From positions 37,504 to 101,503 of IMG/VR virus record IMGVR_UViG_3300012012_001194: a DNA stretch of 64,000 bases; one strand, given 5' to 3'. The number at the start of each line of letters is the position of its first letter. Position 1 is the stretch's first letter. This DNA is from a virus. The position numbers were made by a program, and so were the translations under genes. Below the pieces are notes generated by a model that made no database searches, had not been told where the DNA came from, and saw only the letters and a list, made by a program, of their open reading frames with translations. Positions 11,145 through 62,246 of this stretch are shown piece after piece.

Positions 11145-11516
11145 TTATCTAGGTCGCATATTTAATAGGTTTCGAGTCATGCTACCGCTATTCATTAGGT
11201 CGAGCATAATTCCAAACCTTGTCGCCTGGGCCATCTTAGCATAATTACCATTCGAGGTGTTAGTGGAGACGTCTCCACTATTTACCTGAGATACGGCAGC
11301 GGCCTGATTAGATACAGAAGGCAGTAGCGTAGACGGGGCCATGGCCTGCGGAAGTGTGTTTACTTGGGCTGCGGCTTGCGGAGATGGCTTACCAGCTTTA
11401 GCAGCAGAAAGGGGAGGCGTAGCGGATGAGCCGCTGCTGGCGGCAGGCTTAGGAATCGATAAGTCTTTTGGAGAAGCGGCGCCAGCAGCTGCCCATTTAT
11501 TAAGAAAATAGCTCAT
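11145..11516 (-). CDS. Low-complexity Ala/Ser/Pro-rich protein
   Basis: 123 aa, coupled to the upstream gene; contains a 20-bp copy of the palindrome. Confidence 0.6.
   Translation of the reverse strand: MSYFLNKWAAAGAASPKDLSIPKPAASSGSSATPPLSAAKAGKPSPQAAAQVNTLPQAMAPSTLLPSVSNQAAAVSQVNSGDVSTNTSNGNYAKMAQATRFGIMLDLMNSGSMTRNLLNMRPR
11261..11280. repeat. Dispersed palindrome copy 2 (20 bp, TAGTGGAGACGTCTCCACTA)
   Basis: Inside the 123-aa ORF, read as SGDVST. Confidence 0.95.
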
Positions 11517-13435
11517 TAAAGTACCCCTTTGTCTTCTTTCATGTCTAAGACACCGTTGTCCATTTGCTTAGTGTTATACCCTTTTACTGGGCCTTTGCGT
11601 CCAAAGTCAACAGCCTTAGCTAGAGAAGGAACATAGGAAGTACTTTGCTCATCACTTATAGCCCCACGATGCACAGCTTGCAGAGTCGACTTTTTAAGGT
11701 TACTACCAAGCATGCGAGTCATCCAGTCGGGGTCATGCTGAAGGTTTTCTAGCCCACGGACAAAGTGAGGCTCAAAAGGAGCGGGCTTATTATGGACGGT
11801 AACCTTACCGACGCCGAAGTCATTAAAGTCATTAATCATCGAAGGCTTAATCTTAGTACCTATGGTGTAGTGCAGAACTGGCTGCTCTAAATAATTACCT
11901 ACTGATTCACTAGGGGTTACTATTCTATGTCCCTCTCTAGGTTCCCAGTCGTGCTCCACTGAGTCATAGGGGACAACATCATCTGGGGCAAATTGTTTGT
12001 ACTCATCCGTAAGCTTAATGTGATTAATAAGCCCTTTCGACATAACCTCAATATTACGACGATTACCGCCCATGCCGGCGTTTCTCATAGCACCTTTGAA
12101 AGCTTGAACAAACTGCCTGCGCCCTTCGCCTATGCCTTTGAACTTAGTCAACTGAGCAGGGTTTGCTATGCCGTCAGAAAGGGTGTCGCCAGCCTCTACT
12201 GTATCGTTGAGCTTTACAGATACTGCGGCTTCAGGGTTAACATAGTGGTCTACCCCGTTGATAGCTACAAAATACCCGCCGGTTGCTGCTGGCTTAATGC
12301 CTGTAACCTTTCCATCTGTCTGTGCGTGGGCGGCCCAGTAAGGAGACTGCTTAGGCGCCTGCACCAATTGATTTAAATGTTTAAACCCTGATACGGCTCC
12401 TGCGGCTCCGGCTACGCCACCAGTATGCTTTGAGCTCAGCTGCCCTTGGGAGATTGGCTCCGAAAGCGCTTGCATCGCAGCAATACCTACAGAGTCTCCA
12501 ATAGGAGCAAAGCCTCCCCGCTCTCTTATTCCTAAGTCTCTAGAGTAAAGTCCGCCATCGGGAGCGCCCATGGCTATTGGACTACGAACTAGAAGCCGTT
12601 TAAGGTTCTTAGACTTTAAATCTTTAAGTATTCTTGGAGTTAAGACGGTGTTTCTGCCATACCCTCCAGCCGGCATAGCTAGAAGAGCGCCCTCGTTATC
12701 ATCATCCTCGATGTCTACAGGAAGCCCGCGGTTTTCAGACCTCGTAGGATCCTCAGCGTCGTCGCCTACCACGATCATCCTATGGCCGATTTGATTAAGC
12801 TGCTTTGAGAAGAACCCAGCGTCCATGGTGGCGAACTTGGTATCCGCAACCCCTTTACGAGCTCCGAAAGCTCCAGCAAAGTATTCTGCAGGGTTAAGAC
12901 CTTTAGAATAGGAGCTGAATACCGGAATAGGTATTGGGTTGTCGTGGTGGTCTGTGTAAAGTAAGTCACCGCCCCTTAAGCTTTTAAGGTTCATCGGCTT
13001 ACCACGGGACCCAGACTGAATCTGTCTAGCTAGCTGATTATTCTCCCTGACGGAGTCATCGAATATACCCTTCTCCATGTCCTTCTGAGAGTTGTTCAGC
13101 AAGTCGATCATTTGGTTGTTTTTACCGGTCTCGTCGTTCTGAGGGTCAGCCATAATGCTGGCTATGGCGGTTCTAAGCTTAGCCTTTGCATCCATAGAGT
13201 ACTTAGACTCTCTGAGATCTTTAAGGCCGAACGAGAACCCACCGCTGCCATAAGCCACATCTCTACCAATGTCGTAGAGCTTCTTTGACACTTCTTTGTA
13301 CTTATCAGGGTGCTGCTCCGCTATGGTCTGCATGAGCGCTGCAGAGGACTTAGAATCTAAAGTTCTAGAGTAGTCCTTAAGTTCATTAGGGAGGGCGTCG
13401 TTAACCATGATCTGACCGATGGTGGTCCTAAGCAT
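11516..13435 (-). CDS. DNA-directed RNA polymerase, beta' C-terminal half
   Basis: RTTIGQ, SGSRG, GLNPAEYF..GARKGVADT...AGFFSKQL (bridge helix), GDSVGIAAMQALSEPISQGQLSSKHTGG (trigger loop), all matching RpoC motifs. Confidence 0.92.
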   Translation of the reverse strand: MLRTTIGQIMVNDALPNELKDYSRTLDSKSSAALMQTIAEQHPDKYKEVSKKLYDIGRDVAYGSGGFSFGLKDLRESKYSMDAKAKLRTAIASIMADPQNDETGKNNQMIDLLNNSQKDMEKGIFDDSVRENNQLARQIQSGSRGKPMNLKSLRGGDLLYTDHHDNPIPIPVFSSYSKGLNPAEYFAGAFGARKGVADTKFATMDAGFFSKQLNQIGHRMIVVGDDAEDPTRSENRGLPVDIEDDDNEGALLAMPAGGYGRNTVLTPRILKDLKSKNLKRLLVRSPIAMGAPDGGLYSRDLGIRERGGFAPIGDSVGIAAMQALSEPISQGQLSSKHTGGVAGAAGAVSGFKHLNQLVQAPKQSPYWAAHAQTDGKVTGIKPAATGGYFVAINGVDHYVNPEAAVSVKLNDTVEAGDTLSDGIANPAQLTKFKGIGEGRRQFVQAFKGAMRNAGMGGNRRNIEVMSKGLINHIKLTDEYKQFAPDDVVPYDSVEHDWEPREGHRIVTPSESVGNYLEQPVLHYTIGTKIKPSMINDFNDFGVGKVTVHNKPAPFEPHFVRGLENLQHDPDWMTRMLGSNLKKSTLQAVHRGAISDEQSTSYVPSLAKAVDFGRKGPVKGYNTKQMDNGVLDMKEDKGVL

Positions 13436-18225: not shown

Positions 18226-21200
18226 CTACTCCACTATGACAACTTTGTCGTTGGCATCAATCTCGCCGGAACGGTACGCACGCATGGCATCAGCCTTAGT
18301 CTTGAAGTACCTCTCTGGCCTCTTAGATGCTTCAGAAGTGGCGGTGTAGAGCCCGCCTTGGTATTCATTCATTGGCAACTGATGAACCTTGAAGTTCTTT
18401 ACAGCGAACAGGTTTCTGCTGGGTAGCATCTTCTCCATAGCGTCTTTAACCGCTTCGTCAGTAGTAGGCACATGGTAGTTCATAGCATCGCCATCGAAGT
18501 CGGCGCCAAACCCTTTTACAATAATAGGAGGAACTTGAAGAGTACTTCCCTTAACAAGGGTAGGCCTAAACGCCATAACCCCATATCTATGTAACACTGG
18601 AGCACGAGTAATGATAACAGGTCTTGCTTCCATCTCAGAAGTCATGGCATCCATAGCCATCTTATCTTTATTCTCTATCATTTCTGCGGCTTTAAACCTA
18701 TCAACTCCACGCCTGACTAATCTTCTCATAATAAATGGCTTATACACTGCCCAAGCCCTGTCTTCAGGGATACCGACTTGATCCATGTCCAGTTCTGGAT
18801 TAGGAGTAATAGCAGCCCTACCTACCATGTCAACATTAGATGCTAATAGCTTTCTTTGAAGGACACTGAACTTAGGGTTATCACCAAAGACTTGCTTTAG
18901 TATTCCCTTTACGTTCTTCTGCTCTAACTTTGGATTGGTAGCATCGCCAAGCCCAGTTACGGCTTTGAGGGAGTCATAAACGCTTGTTCTATGCTCAGAA
19001 AGATCAGAGAAGCTCTTGGACGACTCCCTCATCTCGTTGTTAGAGTCGATCAACTCTTTATAAAGATAGTTAGCGTCTCCAACCATAGGCAGCCCGCTTG
19101 ACTGCATCACGCTAACTGGCCTAAATAAAGGAGGAAGCACAGGAGCTTTAGACATCATCCAGTCAGATGGATGCATATTCAGTTCTTTAGTGCTCTTAAG
19201 ATACCCAAGTTTACGAACTGCTTCATCTCTGTAAGACTTCTTACCAGAAGCTATCTGAGCTCTGGCTTTCATGATCTCTTGGTCGACATTGATCTTCTTT
19301 AGTGCTATCCCAATAGCGTTAGGTCCCTTAACGCCGTTAAGAGCTTCTTTACCAGCTAATACGTCTCTAAATTTGTTCTCTGTTAATCCCAGTACTTTGC
19401 GTATGGGCTCTTCCATAACAGGGTTAGGCATCGGCTCGTGCAGCTTTATGTGGCTCCACATCGTACCGCCATGGCCGCCCGTAAGCTTAGGGTCAAATAA
19501 CCCATCACCGACTGGCTTCATGCCGCCTTCCCAATCTACGGTGTCGGATCGCTTAATCTCACGATCGCCTGAGAGGGAGTCTATATCTCTATCAGTCAAT
19601 GCCATGAGCTGTGTCTTGGAGCCGCTGCGCACGGGGTTAATTCCAGCTGCTTGGAGCTGTGCCATAAACTTGCGATAGGTCAAAGGCACTCTAGGGATTG
19701 GCATAGCCTTGCCCCCCATGAAGGCCGCCCAGTAATCATCGTTCTTCTGGCCTCGAATAGCTCCTGCGTCTCTTAGAACCTCATGGGCCCCGTGAGAGAG
19801 TAGAGCGTTAACGTCCATGAGGGCCATTCTTTTAGATCCGGTCTCTCCGCCTTTAGCCGGGGTCTCTTCAGCGGTGTACCCGCTAGAAATTCCTCGACCT
19901 TGGCCTTTAGACTCAGAGGTGTGATGCAACTTCATAAAGAAGCGATTGCCTGTGAAGATGTTCTTAATCTTCTTACCTGACTCAGGATCTTCGAGGTCTT
20001 CCATATCACTAAGGTTGTTTTTTCTAAGCTCATCGATAGCGAACTCAGTAAGGTCTTCGATGTTGTCGAAGTCTTTAACTGCGTAGCGTTTACCTGTCTT
20101 CTCAGATATCTTTCCAAGAGCAGCTTCTACCATCTGGCTTGGATTAGTTCGAGTAATAACCCCAAGCGGGTTTAGTAGTACTTCAAAGGGCCGTCCGTCT
20201 GCGCCTTTTGGCATCTTGTCATCAGGAACAACAGTGGAGATAACTCCTTTATCACCATAACGCCCGGAGAGCTTATCTCCTTCTTTCATGGGGTTAAGGC
20301 TCTTTACCGTTACTGCAAATCCTTTTTTAGTTTGAGCCACGTCGGTAACCACACCTTCGTTCTCGTGATCCCACGTGGTGCTGGCGTTATTAAACCCAGT
20401 CCTAGACCTTCCAACTTGCTGGTTATGGGCTCTTGAGAGTACGTTAGCTTGTAAGATAAGTGGGTCACCTTTTCTTACAACTGTACCCGGCTTAATCACA
20501 CCGTTGTCGTCAAGGTTGTCTACGAGGGCCCTAGAATAATCAGAAGGAAACAGTGTAAGAAACGCCCGCTTTCCAGGCTTGGTGTCTTTGTCAAATTCAG
20601 CCTCATGCTGATACATGTGCTCAGAGGTTAGACGTTTAGCTGCGCCTTCTGAAATAACAATAGCGTCTTCAAAGTTGTAACCCTTGTAAGGTATGTAGGC
20701 GGTTCTAAGATTAGTGCCTAGCGCAGATGTGCCTTTGTCATTAGTGTAGTTAGATCTAGCTAACAAGTCACCTTGGTTGACAACATCACCAACTTTTACG
20801 GTAGCCGTGTTATGTAGAAAAGTCTTACGGTTGAATGGAAGATTATTATAGATCTCTTTCTTGTGAAGCTGGCCGTCTTCTCCCCGTACATGAATCTCAT
20901 CACCATCTACTTTGATTACTTGGCCCGCTACATCAGAGTGTATAGCGCCCATATGTTTACCGTAATCTTCCTCATAAGACTTGTCGTCTTCATCGGGCAT
21001 ACCTGATTGCACATAAGGGGCTTCAGGGTTTTGTAGGGGTAGCGCCTGCGTAAGCATGCGGGCGCCCATCATTACTCGCTGCCCTTTGGTAGCGCTCTTA
21101 AGAGGAATCATATTGGCTAGCTGATTAAAGGCGTGCTCCATGCGAGGAAGCTCATGGCTAACCTCTGCTCTGTTCACGTACTTGATCTTACCGTTAACTA

Positions 21201-22701
21201 AAGCAGCTATCTTTTGATTATTAGGATCTCGAAGCTGATTAGGGAACGCCACAACAGAGTCGGCCATCTCTTGAGGAGTTCGCCACACTTGCTCGTTAGT
21301 GTTCACGTCTCTAAATCCGCCATACACCTTTCCATCAATACCTTTTCTGGAGTTGATAGCAATACGACTGTCTACGCCTACTTTGAGAGACTCTGGAGTT
21401 AGCAAGGGGTCTACAAAGCCAAAGTGAGACGGCTGTACGTTACGAGCCTCTTCAGGTACAGATTGCAGCGAAGGGATACCGCCTTCACCGAGGCGGCTAA
21501 TCCTAGTTACTTGGTTAAGCAGGTCGGCAGGGTTAACTTCTTCAAGGGGTTGGCCTAACCCGCTAGTCATAATGGCGCCATTAATCTGAGAGTTTAAAAA
21601 CCCAGCGCTGAAAGGGCTTAGGTTCTTCCTGAAGCTAGCCTTCCATAGCAGAGGGCGCATTACTCGGTGTGCAGCGTTGACCCTTTCTGCAAATAAGTCT
21701 TCAGGCCCAACCATAGACTGATACGCCATAGCGTCACGGTCGTCTGGGTCTACCTCTTTACGGTGGACAGCTAATATCTTCTTAGTAGCAGCTAAAATAG
21801 AATCTGCTGATACGTTCTTAAACGGCTGACCTAAAGTGCGAGACGTAACCTCGGGATCCATCTCCATCTTGGCGATAGCTTCTAATATAGATTGCTTTTT
21901 ACTCTCTGCGGTATGAATCTCGCCTGCCTTAGTCTTGCCTATCTTGGCAAACAGCTTTTCCATATGGTTTGGATCGTCGGTAGCAGAGTTAGCACTGTAG
22001 ATCTCATTACCCCAGGCTTCTCTAAGCTGCTTGTCAGTAGCGCCAAGGGCTTTTAGTAAAGGAGTAACAGGTACAGAGGATTGGCCGAAGCCTATAGAAA
22101 ATACACCCTTCTCAGGATCTAGCGAGTAGCGATGGGACGAGCCTTTTCCTGGCATAACGTTGACATGGCTTTCGACTTCACCATTCTTAGCGATACGAGT
22201 GAACACGCCTGGCTTTAGCCGCATTTGATTAGCTAACGTGTATTCAGTGCCGGTGACGATGAAAGTGCCACGGTCGGTCATATAGGGAACTTTAGCCAGC
22301 GTAGTTCTACGGGTGTCTAGCGTATCGCCAGTAACATTATCTGTTAATGTTAGCGTACCTTTAAGTGCCCGATTTAAGGTATCGCCCTTAAGAATTGCAT
22401 TCTTCTGTGACTTGATAGACTTCTGCTCATCGGGGTCGTCCCAGCCAATATCCGAAACACTTAAGGTGTGCCTCTGGTTTACTAATGGTTGGATGTTAGA
22501 TGCGGCAGCTTGAATACCAGAAAAGATAGCAGTCCTAGTAGCTTTGATATCATCAAACTTGCGCATTGGCGGCGGTACGGGGGGTTGCATAACGGGCGGC
22601 GGCAGGGTAGGAGCTGCCGTAGAAGCAACCAAGCCGACTGGCTTAGGCTTAGTCGGCTCGGAGCTCAGAACACTGTTATCGTCATCAAGTATTCCAGCCA
22701 T
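18226..22701 (-). CDS. DNA-directed RNA polymerase: beta fused to the N-terminal catalytic half of beta'
   Basis: Beta motifs: TPES..VG, GYNFEDAI, GDKLSGRYGDKGVIS, LNPLGV..R.N..Q, KLHH. Beta' motifs follow: GLFDP, PVLPP..RP, RAPVLHR, and catalytic GADFDGD at 18487-18507. Confidence 0.95.
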   Translation of the reverse strand: MAGILDDDNSVLSSEPTKPKPVGLVASTAAPTLPPPVMQPPVPPPMRKFDDIKATRTAIFSGIQAAASNIQPLVNQRHTLSVSDIGWDDPDEQKSIKSQKNAILKGDTLNRALKGTLTLTDNVTGDTLDTRRTTLAKVPYMTDRGTFIVTGTEYTLANQMRLKPGVFTRIAKNGEVESHVNVMPGKGSSHRYSLDPEKGVFSIGFGQSSVPVTPLLKALGATDKQLREAWGNEIYSANSATDDPNHMEKLFAKIGKTKAGEIHTAESKKQSILEAIAKMEMDPEVTSRTLGQPFKNVSADSILAATKKILAVHRKEVDPDDRDAMAYQSMVGPEDLFAERVNAAHRVMRPLLWKASFRKNLSPFSAGFLNSQINGAIMTSGLGQPLEEVNPADLLNQVTRISRLGEGGIPSLQSVPEEARNVQPSHFGFVDPLLTPESLKVGVDSRIAINSRKGIDGKVYGGFRDVNTNEQVWRTPQEMADSVVAFPNQLRDPNNQKIAALVNGKIKYVNRAEVSHELPRMEHAFNQLANMIPLKSATKGQRVMMGARMLTQALPLQNPEAPYVQSGMPDEDDKSYEEDYGKHMGAIHSDVAGQVIKVDGDEIHVRGEDGQLHKKEIYNNLPFNRKTFLHNTATVKVGDVVNQGDLLARSNYTNDKGTSALGTNLRTAYIPYKGYNFEDAIVISEGAAKRLTSEHMYQHEAEFDKDTKPGKRAFLTLFPSDYSRALVDNLDDNGVIKPGTVVRKGDPLILQANVLSRAHNQQVGRSRTGFNNASTTWDHENEGVVTDVAQTKKGFAVTVKSLNPMKEGDKLSGRYGDKGVISTVVPDDKMPKGADGRPFEVLLNPLGVITRTNPSQMVEAALGKISEKTGKRYAVKDFDNIEDLTEFAIDELRKNNLSDMEDLEDPESGKKIKNIFTGNRFFMKLHHTSESKGQGRGISSGYTAEETPAKGGETGSKRMALMDVNALLSHGAHEVLRDAGAIRGQKNDDYWAAFMGGKAMPIPRVPLTYRKFMAQLQAAGINPVRSGSKTQLMALTDRDIDSLSGDREIKRSDTVDWEGGMKPVGDGLFDPKLTGGHGGTMWSHIKLHEPMPNPVMEEPIRKVLGLTENKFRDVLAGKEALNGVKGPNAIGIALKKINVDQEIMKARAQIASGKKSYRDEAVRKLGYLKSTKELNMHPSDWMMSKAPVLPPLFRPVSVMQSSGLPMVGDANYLYKELIDSNNEMRESSKSFSDLSEHRTSVYDSLKAVTGLGDATNPKLEQKNVKGILKQVFGDNPKFSVLQRKLLASNVDMVGRAAITPNPELDMDQVGIPEDRAWAVYKPFIMRRLVRRGVDRFKAAEMIENKDKMAMDAMTSEMEARPVIITRAPVLHRYGVMAFRPTLVKGSTLQVPPIIVKGFGADFDGDAMNYHVPTTDEAVKDAMEKMLPSRNLFAVKNFKVHQLPMNEYQGGLYTATSEASKRPERYFKTKADAMRAYRSGEIDANDKVVIVE

Positions 22702-59688: not shown

Positions 59689-59748
59689 ACCATTAGCACC
59701 TCATTAAAGATTAGTTACTTAGATCATACCCTAGATGAGGGAGTGGCT

Positions 59749-59800
59749 GATAGCTAAAAAAAGAACCAGAGGCTTACCCGTGAAGGTAAGCTTCTAGTTT
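59749..59800 (-). terminator. Intrinsic terminator T4
   Basis: AGAGGCTTACC-CGTGAA-GGTAAGCTTCT hairpin, U7 tract, TAGCTATC tail. Confidence 0.85.
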
Positions 59801-59950
59801 GGCCTGCTTCAACCGCTGATACTCAGCGGCCTCCTCCAACAGGCCTCTTATCGCCTCTAAAACACGAAGGGAACCTTCGTGATTCTGGTCCTCGTGAAGG
59901 GCGACGGCTGCGTCGCACTCTGCCTTTACCTGGTCCATTAAAGCTTCCAT
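59774..59950 (-). CDS. 58-aa acidic helical protein (cassette 4 cargo; below the ORF-track cutoff)
   Basis: MEALMDQVKAECDAAVALHEDQNHEGSLRVLEAIRGLLEEAAEYQRLKQAKLEAYLHG; RBS AGGAG. Confidence 0.65.
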   Translation of the reverse strand: MEALMDQVKAECDAAVALHEDQNHEGSLRVLEAIRGLLEEAAEYQRLKQAKLEAYLHG

Positions 59951-60035
59951 GTTAATCTCCTAAAGAATGAGTAGAACAACCCACAAAAAGTTCGTAGGTT
60001 TGGCCCCGTTTTTACAGGTACGGGTAACCATTATA

Positions 60036-60063
60036 TTATGACGCACTTAGAGGTTGAATTAAG
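60036..60063 (-). promoter_or_regulatory. Bipartite promoter-like motif P4
   Basis: TTATGACGC-N12-AATTAAG on the + strand. Confidence 0.75.
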
Positions 60064-60150
60064 CTGCGACGAAAAAAGGTCGCTGGCGACGAAACGTAAC
60101 TCACCCGTAACTCACCCGTAACTCAGATGCCTTGTTACGTGTTCGATGTG

Positions 60151-60168
60151 AGTGGAGACGTCTCCACT
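60151..60168. repeat. Dispersed palindrome copy 10 (18 bp)
   Basis: Intergenic, between T5 and P4. Confidence 0.95.
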
Positions 60169-60172
60169 AGCT

Positions 60173-60228
60173 GATAGATAAAAAAAAGACACATGAGACC
60201 GGGGTTTAACCCGGTAACCTCATGTATC
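60173..60228 (-). terminator. Intrinsic terminator T5
   Basis: ACATGAG..CCGGG/CCCGG..CTCATGT hairpin, U8 tract, TATCTATC tail. Confidence 0.8.
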
Positions 60229-60806
60229 CCTCTTTGTGGAAGTTTCATCCACACCCACTTATCTACGGCTGGTTACCGCCCACTGTTCTTAGGCCGTGGG
60301 GCCTGAGAGTAATAGTTGCAGTTTATAGTCATGCCAAGGACTTGCAGTGTTAGCCACTCACTGTAAGGCGGTGAGACGCCGAGCAAGTTAACGTCCTGCT
60401 CAAGACGTGCACCTCACTAAGATGCCGATAAATTCTACGCCAGTAGTTACTTGGCATAGTGTGGAAGTTTCATCCACATCCGTCCCCGGCCGGTAGCCGC
60501 CCATCTGTTGAGTCAGTGGGAACCTGCAGTTTAACGTCATGCATGGACGCCCGCGATAAACTTTAAGTGAAGCAGTTTAACGTCCTGCTCAAGACGGAAG
60601 GAATTTACATCCTTCTTTGGAGACACTTCCCACCAATAGGGGAGGCTAGCCTGCAAGAATTCGTGTTCTTGCCTACCAGAGACTTTATGCTAGCCGTGTC
60701 TCTGGCGGTTCCTATTGCAGCACCAATCTGACCGGAACTATCAGTTGGGCTCCCGAAACAACTTGTTTAAAGTCCTTCTCGGGTAGGACCGATACCTATC
60801 GGTATC
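60180..60806 (-). ncRNA. Candidate ~620-nt structured ncRNA with duplicated pseudoknot/hairpin modules (cassette 5)
   Basis: No ORF of 60 aa or more; bounded by P5 and T5; four GTC..GCA.GAC.TAA.CTGC-type pseudoknots; two TGTGGATGAAACTTCCACA hairpins. Confidence 0.7.
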
Positions 60807-60813
60807 CATTATA

Positions 60814-60841
60814 TTATGACGCGTTTGTAGGTCGAATTAAG
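60814..60841 (-). promoter_or_regulatory. Bipartite promoter-like motif P5
   Basis: TTATGACGC-N12-AATTAAG on the + strand; overlaps the cupin stop. Confidence 0.75.
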
Positions 60842-61202
60842 CCTTGATGCCGCCTATGTCTGTACGCACAATGTCGTGCTCCGATAGCTCAGACCAGTAG
60901 ATCTCTAAAGCTTCAGTCTCTTCTAAAGCTTCAAACTTATGGTTCAAGCCAGGAGGTATCTTAATGCACTCGGTAGGCCTAAGCGTGATGGTGCTCTTTG
61001 TAGTGCCATCTGGGTTGTAGCAGATAACCACTAGCTTACCTGAGACTATATAGAATTGATTCCACTTATGCTGGTGAAAGTGATTAGAGCAGTATCCACC
61101 TTTGAGGATATGTATGTGGCAGATCTGAAAGGAGTTATCCAAATGAATGATATGGTTTCGGCCCCATAACTTCTCTTCTTGTCGTACAGCTAGAACGTCC
61201 AT
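60837..61202 (-). CDS. Cupin-fold protein
   Basis: KLWG, CSNHFHQHKWNQF, IPPG..HKF.A.E...LE. Confidence 0.8.
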   Translation of the reverse strand: MDVLAVRQEEKLWGRNHIIHLDNSFQICHIHILKGGYCSNHFHQHKWNQFYIVSGKLVVICYNPDGTTKSTITLRPTECIKIPPGLNHKFEALEETEALEIYWSELSEHDIVRTDIGGIKA

Positions 61203-61205
61203 GAG

Positions 61206-62246
61206 TTAGCCCTCTATAATCTTCTTCCATGCTTTGTTAAAGCTAGCTCTCTTAGTCTTTCTACTCAGCTTAGTTCGCTTGTTCATGCCCGCTAGGCGGT
61301 TATCAATTGCAATCGTAGCCGACTCTATAAACTGAACCGCATCAGGCTTAGCGAACATAGGCCCATTGGGGGCCCCGCCAGCATCACACGGCACTAGCAT
61401 TCCGTTGATGCCGTCTATGATTATATCAGACATAGGTGGCATGTCATAAGCAATAACTGGTGTTCCCATGTATAACGATTCTATACCTACAAGGCCAAAC
61501 CCCTCGATCTCAGCAGGCCACAGTACTAGGTCATGTGCTCCATACAGCAGCAAGGAGCTTACACAGGTCGACGTATCAATCACAGCCGCTATCTTCTTGT
61601 TCTTATGTAGGAAGTGGCGAATCTCCTTAAGTACATTCCACGACATGCACTTAGGGCTATACGAGACAGTAATAGAGGCATGAGGGCACCTAGCGCTCAC
61701 ACCCGTCAGAATATCAAATAAAGAATCCAAATCACAGCGCAGTCCTTGGCTTGCGTGCAATGGCACCAGCACCTTAGGATTCTTAACATTGACTCCGCTA
61801 CTTGACTTTCTAGTAACAGGCAGCGGGCTGTCCCACGCTATGGTTGATACGTTGCTCAGCCTGTACTCTTTCTTAAGCAACTTAGCTACATCGGCACAAG
61901 GGGCTACCGTGTGGGCGCACATCTTAAATGACTTCTTAGTATACCCTGGGAGGCAGTCCCATGGCGCTAAGGCTATGGTAACAATGTTCTTACCTACTGC
62001 CTGCACTGACTCCTTAGTGGGAGGCACAGGCCATATGATATGAGTAATACCTTTAAGCCACCTAGCATAAGTCATCTCTTTTGGGGTGACAACCATAGAG
62101 TCCCACTCACAGCCATAGACATGGCTCTTCCTTCCAGTGCTGAATAAGGTGGTCTCGTATCCCATGCTACGAAGAGAGTCAGATAGGCGTAGAGCTGCAT
62201 AAACTGCATCGTGAGGCTTGTACTGAACATCAAAGCCTATCTTCAT
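61206..62246 (-). CDS. GT-B (family 4-like) glycosyltransferase
   Basis: EGFGLVGIES...GTPVIAYD.PP..D.I..G.NG.L. Confidence 0.82.
   Translation of the reverse strand: MKIGFDVQYKPHDAVYAALRLSDSLRSMGYETTLFSTGRKSHVYGCEWDSMVVTPKEMTYARWLKGITHIIWPVPPTKESVQAVGKNIVTIALAPWDCLPGYTKKSFKMCAHTVAPCADVAKLLKKEYRLSNVSTIAWDSPLPVTRKSSSGVNVKNPKVLVPLHASQGLRCDLDSLFDILTGVSARCPHASITVSYSPKCMSWNVLKEIRHFLHKNKKIAAVIDTSTCVSSLLLYGAHDLVLWPAEIEGFGLVGIESLYMGTPVIAYDMPPMSDIIIDGINGMLVPCDAGGAPNGPMFAKPDAVQFIESATIAIDNRLAGMNKRTKLSRKTKRASFNKAWKKIIEG

Follow-up and report, generated by a model that had tools for sequence, protein, structure and literature searches.

The 64,000-nt stretch of DNA analyzed here (hereafter, the window) covers the right-hand end (64 kb) of IMGVR_UViG_3300012012_001194, an IMG/VR virus record of 101.5 kb that was judged to be 49% complete. 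On its minus strand, an 886-nt gap between a cupin gene (60837-61202) and a small open reading frame (ORF; 59774-59950) holds the gene for a noncoding RNA (ncRNA), a chain of H-type pseudoknots (hereafter, knots) and conserved-loop hairpins (Table 1). The newly found element is a dedicated, promoter-driven, expressed ncRNA built of knots that resemble coremin, an Xrn1-resistant RNA of eukaryotic viruses, and it is accompanied by mosaic relatives. The phage that carries it is a freshwater phage of approximately 190 kb; one relative, 190 kb long, has a completeness of 92%.

The ncRNA gene and its signals

An initial annotation, made from the letters of the window, had placed an ORF-less RNA with its own promoter and terminator at this position. 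When the window sequence was re-read, all of the elements listed in that annotation were present at their minus-strand coordinates, together with a sigma-70-like promoter and an intrinsic terminator. The promoter lies within a box (TTAAT..GCGTCATAAT) that occurs four times in the 101-kb record, every time on the minus strand, and this cassette-type promoter is the single indication that the ncRNA may be synthesized early. The predicted fold is far more stable than that of shuffled sequence (minimum free energy z = -7.2). Because the opposite strand folds nearly as stably, the strand was assigned from the promoter and terminator and from the abundance of G.U pairs.

That the locus encodes one or more small proteins is extremely improbable. 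Sense ORFs of 35-46 aa do occur, 46 aa being the longest in the gap, and one relative contains an ORF of 87 aa; however, no ORF is preceded by a Shine-Dalgarno sequence, the sense ORFs are not conserved among the homologues, which have no ORF in common, and the homologues differ by indels whose lengths are not divisible by three. In the related contig L004, the start codon of the window's 35-aa ORF reads ACG instead of ATG, a change by which a U.G pair within a stem becomes C-G.

No Rfam 15 family reached its gathering threshold in the 64-kb window and a search at E<=10 gave nothing usable, which agrees with the proposal of a previously undescribed RNA. ARAGORN found no tRNA or tmRNA, blastn of the whole ncRNA against GenBank phages returned no match, and a literature text search on jumbo-phage noncoding RNA pseudoknots yielded nothing relevant. 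As identities of the knot, preQ1-I, guanidine-III, SAM-II, and pistol were rejected on their consensus sequences and the missing Rfam match, and a tRNA-like reading of the hairpin-hairpin-knot unit was rejected because its loops break the anticodon and T-loop rules. Mimicry of a CRISPR repeat by the GUGGAUGAAAC hairpin was considered as an idea. Like GOLLD, ROOL, and HEARO, the ncRNA is several hundred nucleotides long, ORF-less, highly structured, and phage-borne; unlike them, it has no Rfam match and forms a beads-on-a-string mosaic with a variable number of modules and no single fixed fold.

Table 1. Predicted features of the ncRNA gene, in window positions, from the promoter to the terminator
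Feature	Positions	Strand	Remarks
ncRNA transcript	60180..60806	minus	about 615-627 nt
Cassette promoter TTCGAC-17 nt-TATAAT, sigma-70-like	60808..60835	minus	inside clade-wide box TTAATTC..GCGTCATAAT
5'-terminal hairpin GAUACC-GAUA-GGUAUC	60790..60805	minus	kept at RNA start in window, L004, L010, L173b, L212
PK0, H-type pseudoknot: GUCCU/AGGAC, UUUAAAC, stem 2 CCCGAGA/UUUCGGG	60752..60789	minus	
Pseudoknot: hairpin CCAACUGA/UCAGAUUGG, loop GUUCC pairs with GGAAC downstream	60708..60748	minus	
Domain CCAGAGAC/GUCUCUGG, loop GGCUAGC pairs with GCUAGCC, inner hairpin GCAAGAA/UUCUUGC	60644..60705	minus	
Hairpin GAAGGA-UGUAAAU-UCCUUC, form as 19-nt hairpin	60597..60615	minus	also in L010
PK-A1, coremin-like: CGUC-UU-GAGCAG-GACG-UUAAA-CUGCUU	60570..60596	minus	model score 38.6 bits
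PK-B1, coremin-like, stem 2 UGCA/UGCA	60525..60549	minus	31.1 bits
CCCA..UGGG element (possibly a pseudoknot) and CGG..CCG hairpin, copy 1	60483..60520	minus	
19-nt conserved-loop hairpin UGUGGA-UGAAACU-UCCACA, copy 1	60460..60478	minus	
Two hairpins: CUAUGCC..GGCGUAG; GCAUC-UUAGUGA-GGUGC abutting PK-A2	60409..60459	minus	U.G pair is C-G in L004
PK-A2, coremin-like, stem 2 UUGAGCAG/UUGCUCGG	60379..60407	minus	35.9 bits
PK-B2, coremin-like: fourth stem-1 pair A-U, L3 UAUAAAC, weaker stem 2	60316..60342	minus	28.7 bits
CCCAC..GUGGG element and CGG..CCG hairpin, copy 2	60266..60302	minus	also in L004 and L007
19-nt conserved-loop hairpin, copy 2	60235..60253	minus	
Intrinsic terminator: long hairpin 60225-60191, then GUC and U8 to 60180	60180..60225	minus	common to L004 and L173b

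Pairing is retained while the sequence changes

Five knots in the window share one form, GUC-loop-GAC-GUUAAAC-tail, with pairing between the tail and the loop; the knot copies in the ncRNA lie 46-189 nt apart and are 67-92% alike. The RNA had been described as two copies of one module, and the repeated elements are indeed present, but their spacings (189, 207, and 225 nt) are those of diverged paralogues rather than of a clean duplication. In its general form, the small knot consists of (C/A)GUC, a linker of 1-2 nt, the 5' strand of stem 2, GAC(G/U), UUAAA(C), and the 3' strand of stem 2. The variants of stem 2 are all complementary (GAGCAG/CUGCUY, UGCA/UGCA, UUAGUA/UGCUAA, UGAGUA/UGCUCA, UGAGCC/GGCUCA, CAGGC/GCCUG, and UGUCGA/UUGGCA), and further pairs are UGAGCA/UGCUCA, UAGGCA/UGCCUA, and UGGGCA/UGCCCA. 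Stem 1 of PK0 reads GUCC(U)/(A)GGAC, GGUC/GACC, AGCC/GGCU, and CGCC/GGCG in four homologues, while the second 5' knot displays a compensatory change from GUUCC/GGAAC in the window to CUUCU/AGGAG in L173b. The loop-downstream pair of the 60644-60705 domain is GACCAGC/GCUGGUC in L010, and the stem of the 19-nt hairpin covaries in relatives (AUGGA/UCCAU) around an unchanged loop.

Searched against 409 kb of loci, related as well as unrelated, a covariance model built on stem 2 recovered 88 knot copies, 74 of them distinct rows. Among the 74 distinct copies, 84.4% of cells pair and both sides change in 7 of 11 pairs; stem 2 contributes double changes in five of its seven pairs, and its pairing figure leans towards structure because the alignment was fitted to that stem. 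Stem 1 lay outside the model yet pairs at 92.7%, with a fourth pair that covaries between C-G and A-U. As for the controls, none of 500 shuffles reached the observed values, and slid partners paired at 23-48%. These results support the earlier claim that pairing is kept where spacers and loops differ, and the G.U pairs in the knot copies fix the strand.

Detection of the ncRNA in lake RNA libraries

Six metatranscriptomes matched a 1.6-kb query spanning the ncRNA and both flanks at 13-15% of its words, and the contigs of four lake metatranscriptomes, from four studies, were examined in detail. Their RNA contigs cover 60233-60794 only, with zero contig depth on the flanks (59700-60185 and 60834-61300); the flanking cupin gene, although 93-100% conserved at the protein level across the clade, has no RNA-contig cover. 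In three runs, contigs end at 60793/60794, approximately 12 nt from the predicted start, and in one run an Illumina adapter directly follows this contig end. Word depth on the ncRNA reached 136-174, and gaps in the contig cover (e.g., 60402-60455 in some runs) carry no meaning. Because DNA carry-over would cover the flanks too, the contigs represent a presence in RNA libraries that is confined to the RNA gene. The ncRNA gene is real and, unlike its neighbors, is detected in lake RNA libraries, consistent with the initial annotation's proposal of a separately transcribed large phage ncRNA. The RNA contigs are mosaic: loose ends match modules of the L007 and L173b types, and one contig joins 60381 to 60571, which corresponds to the loss of exactly one module between the PK-A copies.

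Module shuffling among related phages

Exact-motif scans, together with the cupin protein, led to a family that numbers seven viral and three metagenome contigs. Scans of viral contigs with 14-mers and 15-mers gave mainly chance matches, and only clade contigs passed a multi-motif filter; an 18-mer scan of metagenomes gave 53 matches, 4 of which were true loci. The ncRNA measures 622 nt in the window, 457 nt in L004, 506 nt in L007, and 452 nt in L010; it is also present in L212, and L173 carries two ncRNA genes. It is missing at the locus in L005/L006, L008, and L009, and throughout the 190-kb relative. Blastn among the ncRNAs revealed blocks of 87-97% identity in varying order, and related phages shuffle, duplicate, or delete ncRNA modules. 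In L195, these modules make up an array of 520 nt that stands directly behind a protein gene, with no promoter between them, as its 3' untranslated region (3'UTR); L195 also shows three tandem units of hairpin, hairpin, and knot. Protein-coding cassettes in the relatives likewise end in this knot, with U7 and AGCTATCA immediately behind it. Unrelated cassette proteins in L004 (4620-4640) and L005/L006 (4920-4940) have identical C-terminal codons (..GW(S)DIVA stop) before the knot-terminator, which suggests that the gene end and the knot move as one module.

The ncRNA might be no more than transcribed debris, that is, gene-end modules (stop, knot, decayed terminator) piled up by illegitimate recombination into a transcript that is stabilized by knots and serves no function. 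The element that forms the knots of the ncRNA also closes protein cassettes, UUCACUUAAAGUUUAUCGC after PK-A1 resembles a decayed T-run with the AGCTATCA box, a stop codon 6-9 nt upstream has been retained in 10 of 22 internal knots, the module content varies in every phage, and half of the relatives are devoid of the ncRNA. Debris would nevertheless be a poor explanation for internal knots that keep both stems via compensatory changes, for a conserved 5' hairpin and 5' domain, for a dedicated promoter, for two such genes in L173, and for contigs of the ncRNA family in the RNA libraries of four studies, and we regard it as unlikely.

The conserved loops permit another explanation, to which we give equally little weight, in which the ncRNA is a sponge for a protein or an RNA and the knots are only stabilizers; its partner could be the 30S subunit, a regulator of the host, or an RNA-binding protein of the phage. 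Binding might occur at the UGAAACU loop of the hairpin, at the UAUACCCAC loops, or at UUAGUGAGGUG and UGAGGGAAGGUG, two purine-rich loops that resemble Shine-Dalgarno sequences. Such a sponge would be consistent with loops that stay invariant while their stems covary, with two to three copies per RNA, and with the tandem units of L195, whereas the restriction of the hairpin to the clade, as seen in the 18-mer scan, argues against it.

Similarity of the knots to coremin

Coremin, also called exoribonuclease-resistant RNA (xrRNA)-C, or xrRNA-WCC in its Watson-Crick form, has been described in BNYVV (beet necrotic yellow vein virus), cucumoviruses, SPlV5, and further RNA viruses of eukaryotes; it has the sequence GUCCGAAGACGUUAAACUAC and comprises a 3-bp GUC/GAC hairpin, a pyrimidine-first loop, and a spacer with an essential A-run (AAA) (PMC6546385, PMC10520033, PMC10321173). 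Hexa- to octaloops are tolerated, a CGAGUAA heptaloop is functional, and in xrRNA-WCC, which lies 8 nt past the last ORF of a picorna-like virus (SPlV5), the loop pairs with the spacer in a stem 2 of 3 bp (PMC6546385, PMC10520033, PMC10321173). Coremin stalls Xrn1 and scanning ribosomes, stimulates frameshifting, and needs the hp2 hairpin for Xrn1 resistance (PMC6546385, PMC10520033, PMC10321173). Neither bacteria nor phages are mentioned in PMC6546385, PMC10520033, and PMC10321173, and our text search found no phage xrRNA; as far as these papers and that search show, xrRNAs are confined to RNA viruses of eukaryotes.

Judged by sequence, the phage knots share critical bases with this Xrn1-resistant RNA. 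The knot GUCC-UGAGCAG-GACGUUAAACUGC, or GUCC..GACGUUAAACU.C in short form, matches coremin (GUCCGAAGACGUUAAACUAC) at 16 of 20 positions, with a larger loop in the phage. The GUC/GAC stem, which is the hp1 (S1) feature of coremin, was found in five of the five window knots, and loop-spacer pairing, the S2 feature, is present with an S2 of 4-8 bp. The spacers of the two elements (GUUAAACUAC in coremin; GUUAAACUGC in PK-A1 and PK-B1) are identical at 9 of 10 positions, and GUUAACUUGC, UAUAAACUGC, and UUUAAAC are variants in phage knots. Knot loops of 7-9 nt (CUGAGCAG, UUGAGCAG, CAUGCAU, CUUGGCAU) have Y as the first base, D as the last, and U rather than G as the second, and a loop of the clade (CUGAGUAA) is one U apart from the functional CGAGUAA heptaloop. 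The best sub-threshold Rfam match of the ncRNA, SBWMV2_UPD-PKb at PK-B1 (19.1 bits versus a threshold of 39, E = 0.83), is a furovirus 3'UTR pseudoknot and fits this coremin-like picture.

Coremin and the phage knot are alike in the GUC/GAC stem, the pyrimidine-first loop, the spacer GUUAAACU with its A-run, and the pairing of loop and spacer, as well as in their 3'UTR site just past the last ORF, in their tandem copies in some viruses, and in the tolerance of larger loops. They differ in that the phage knot is carried by DNA phages and bacteria, has a loop of 7-9 nt and a stem 2 of 4-8 bp (versus 0-3 bp), does without hp2, and is set here within a dedicated 620-nt ncRNA.

Placement of the knot in phages and bacteria

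A scan with a 20-base pattern (CCTGAG N2-6 GACGTTAAACTGCT) matched 38 loci in the genomes of very diverse bacteria, compared with approximately five expected by chance, and at least 119 stretches of viral contigs; several bacterial contigs hold three to four knot copies. Almost half of the distinct copies (57/120) lie 1-15 nt past the stop of a same-strand ORF of at least 50 aa, as against 3.8% of random positions, and the distance from the stop codon peaks sharply at 6-9 nt. In L245, four small ORFs each precede a knot behind which a type III hammerhead stands (Rfam gathering score), and in L220, a twister-P1-like match (E = 1e-6) begins one base past the knot. In these bacterial contigs of metagenome-assembled genomes, the self-cleaving ribozyme stands 0-1 nt after the knot (L245 2089-2177 and 3071-3159; L220 2259-2343), and cleavage directly 3' of the knot would give the upstream RNA a knot as its 3' end. 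A knot-like copy, with AUCC for GUCC, and two ACGTTAAA motifs were also observed in the 230-nt spacer of a large tRNA gene array in an AT-rich phage (L011 5450-5700 and L014).

The motif is carried by 18 GenBank phage records; 4 of these name no host, and the named hosts are all Bacillota, Actinomycetota, or Cyanobacteria, with no enterobacterial phages among the 18. In Mycobacterium phage Labelle, the knot begins 6 nt past the gp85 stop, and Geobacillus phage D6E and Lactobacillus phages, including KC5a, are further cultured carriers. Bacillota, Actinomycetota, and Cyanobacteria possess RNase J, a 5'-3' exoribonuclease, and the hosts of the motif and the RNase J lineages coincide, a relationship that is purely correlational.

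This distribution also bears on the analogy drawn in the initial annotation to the type III antitoxins (ToxI, CptI, TenpI), by which the ncRNA would be a ToxI-like mimic neutralizing an abortive-infection endoribonuclease. The analogy found no support, and we consider such a mimic very unlikely. What the two share is several small H-type pseudoknots per RNA, in a 4-8-4-UUAA layout that we take to be superficially like the ToxI unit. Type III antitoxin RNAs, however, are tandem identical repeats of 34-45 nt that stand beside a toxin gene and are processed by the toxin, none of which applies to the ncRNA: TRF finds no tandem array of such units inside it, no ToxN/AbiF-like gene is present among its neighbors, and Rfam gives no ToxI match. 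The knot is instead a generic, coremin-like gene-end element, present in phages of many phyla and placed by stop codons and ribozymes.

Proposed function of the ncRNA

The best reading of the ncRNA is that of a stable RNA that would stall or titrate host RNA-decay enzymes, for which we estimate a probability of roughly 40%. Each knot would form a compact mechanical roadblock for RNA-threading enzymes (for example, exoribonucleases of the RNase J kind, scanning RNase E, or ribosomes), and the 5' hairpin, some ten knots, and the strong terminator would together armor the ncRNA, so that it would be extremely long-lived. The ncRNA would then act in trans as a decoy on which host RNA-decay enzymes are stalled or titrated, and its conserved hairpin loops may offer extra protein-binding sites. 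If the ncRNA is a sponge or decoy, the RNA-decay machinery is a likelier target than an abortive-infection toxin.

In this role, the ncRNA would be the phage counterpart of the subgenomic flavivirus RNA (sfRNA) or of BNYVV ncRNA3, with which it would share, by analogy to these known systems, the character of a stable viral ncRNA, a core of exonuclease-resistant knots, and a proposed action as a sponge or inhibitor of host decay factors. The sfRNA and BNYVV ncRNA3 are remnants of a longer RNA that 5'-3' decay has degraded incompletely, whereas the phage ncRNA has its own promoter, and flaviviral xrRNAs belong to other, unrelated fold families. The more specific proposal of a promoter-driven phage "sfRNA," composed of exoribonuclease-resistant knots of the coremin family that trap or inhibit host decay enzymes such as RNase J, is less likely than not. 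The ncRNA is, by likeness, a viral ncRNA on knots of the nuclease-resistant type that is absent from Rfam and the literature searched. If the roadblock reading is true, the coremin knot would be a universal roadblock in viruses of bacteria and eukaryotes; this would carry the principle of exoribonuclease-resistant RNA into prokaryotes, supply bacterial RNA-decay research with a natural roadblock element, and explain the pairing of ribozymes and terminators in phage genomes with a conserved knot.

Several observations weigh against a role as a decay-enzyme roadblock. The nuclease resistance of the knots is suggested solely by their likeness to coremin, and their loops do not strictly fit the coremin forms YGAD/YGNNAD. 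Furthermore, no conserved hairpin (hp2) is found 3' of the phage knots, where the cassettes have a U-run or a ribozyme. Coremin protects the RNA 3' of itself, whereas the cassette knot stands at the very 3' end, so that its native job may differ and may be, for example, that of a 3'-end cap or of a stop for terminating ribosomes. The ncRNA is also dispensable, being missing in four of eight related contigs, including the 92%-complete genome, and metatranscriptome contigs show neither RNA ends, strand, nor true abundance.

Genomic setting and further observations

The phage encodes multisubunit RNA-polymerase beta/beta'-like proteins (window 11516-13435 and 18226-22701), and in these RNA-polymerase genes Salmonella phage Arash and Vibrio phages D69/D181 come closest among cultured phages, at approximately 31% identity. 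The conserved cassette promoter could be read by the host polymerase or by the phage's own multisubunit enzyme. A 607-aa phage protein was examined as a chimallin, which was ruled out, as the protein is asparagine-synthetase-like. On the 5' side of the ncRNA gene lie the cupin gene and three glycosyltransferases (GT2, GT2, and GT4), and other neighbors are small proteins without a Pfam match. On the 3' side begins a hypervariable region of small cassettes, which follow a common plan in which a shared promoter box and structured leader precede a small ORF, a terminator, and AGCTATCA; in L173, 12 promoter boxes and 11 terminators fall within 6 kb of cassettes. The T4-type PeSL cassettes are promoter-early stem-loop repeats that mediate gene shuffling. 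In both systems, a hypervariable region is made up of small, exchangeable cassettes bordered by repeated terminator-promoter junctions; in the phage described here, by contrast, many junctions use a pseudoknot rather than a simple stem-loop, and the content of one cassette is an RNA rather than an ORF.

Past the ncRNA terminator, at 60152-60167 (minus strand), lies a perfect 16-bp palindrome, GTGGAGACGTCTCCAC, which is also present in L005/L006 (4433-4450), L008, L009, and L195. In relatives, it stands directly 5' of the TTAAT promoter box and is a candidate operator for a dimeric cassette regulator. An 11-nt tandem repeat of 2.8 copies (GGTGAGTTACG on the minus strand) occupies 60069-60125 and is followed by a small hairpin and T6 terminator (GTCGCCAGCGACC-TTTTTT); the same GTCGCCAGCGACC-type hairpin and a similar GTTAC-rich sequence occur in L005/L006. 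A second cassette promoter with a conserved structured leader, GGTTACCCGTACCTGTAAAAACGGGG, at 59951-60060 precedes the 58-aa ORF at 59774-59950, and this leader is also found in L005, L008, and L009, where it stands before unrelated ORFs.

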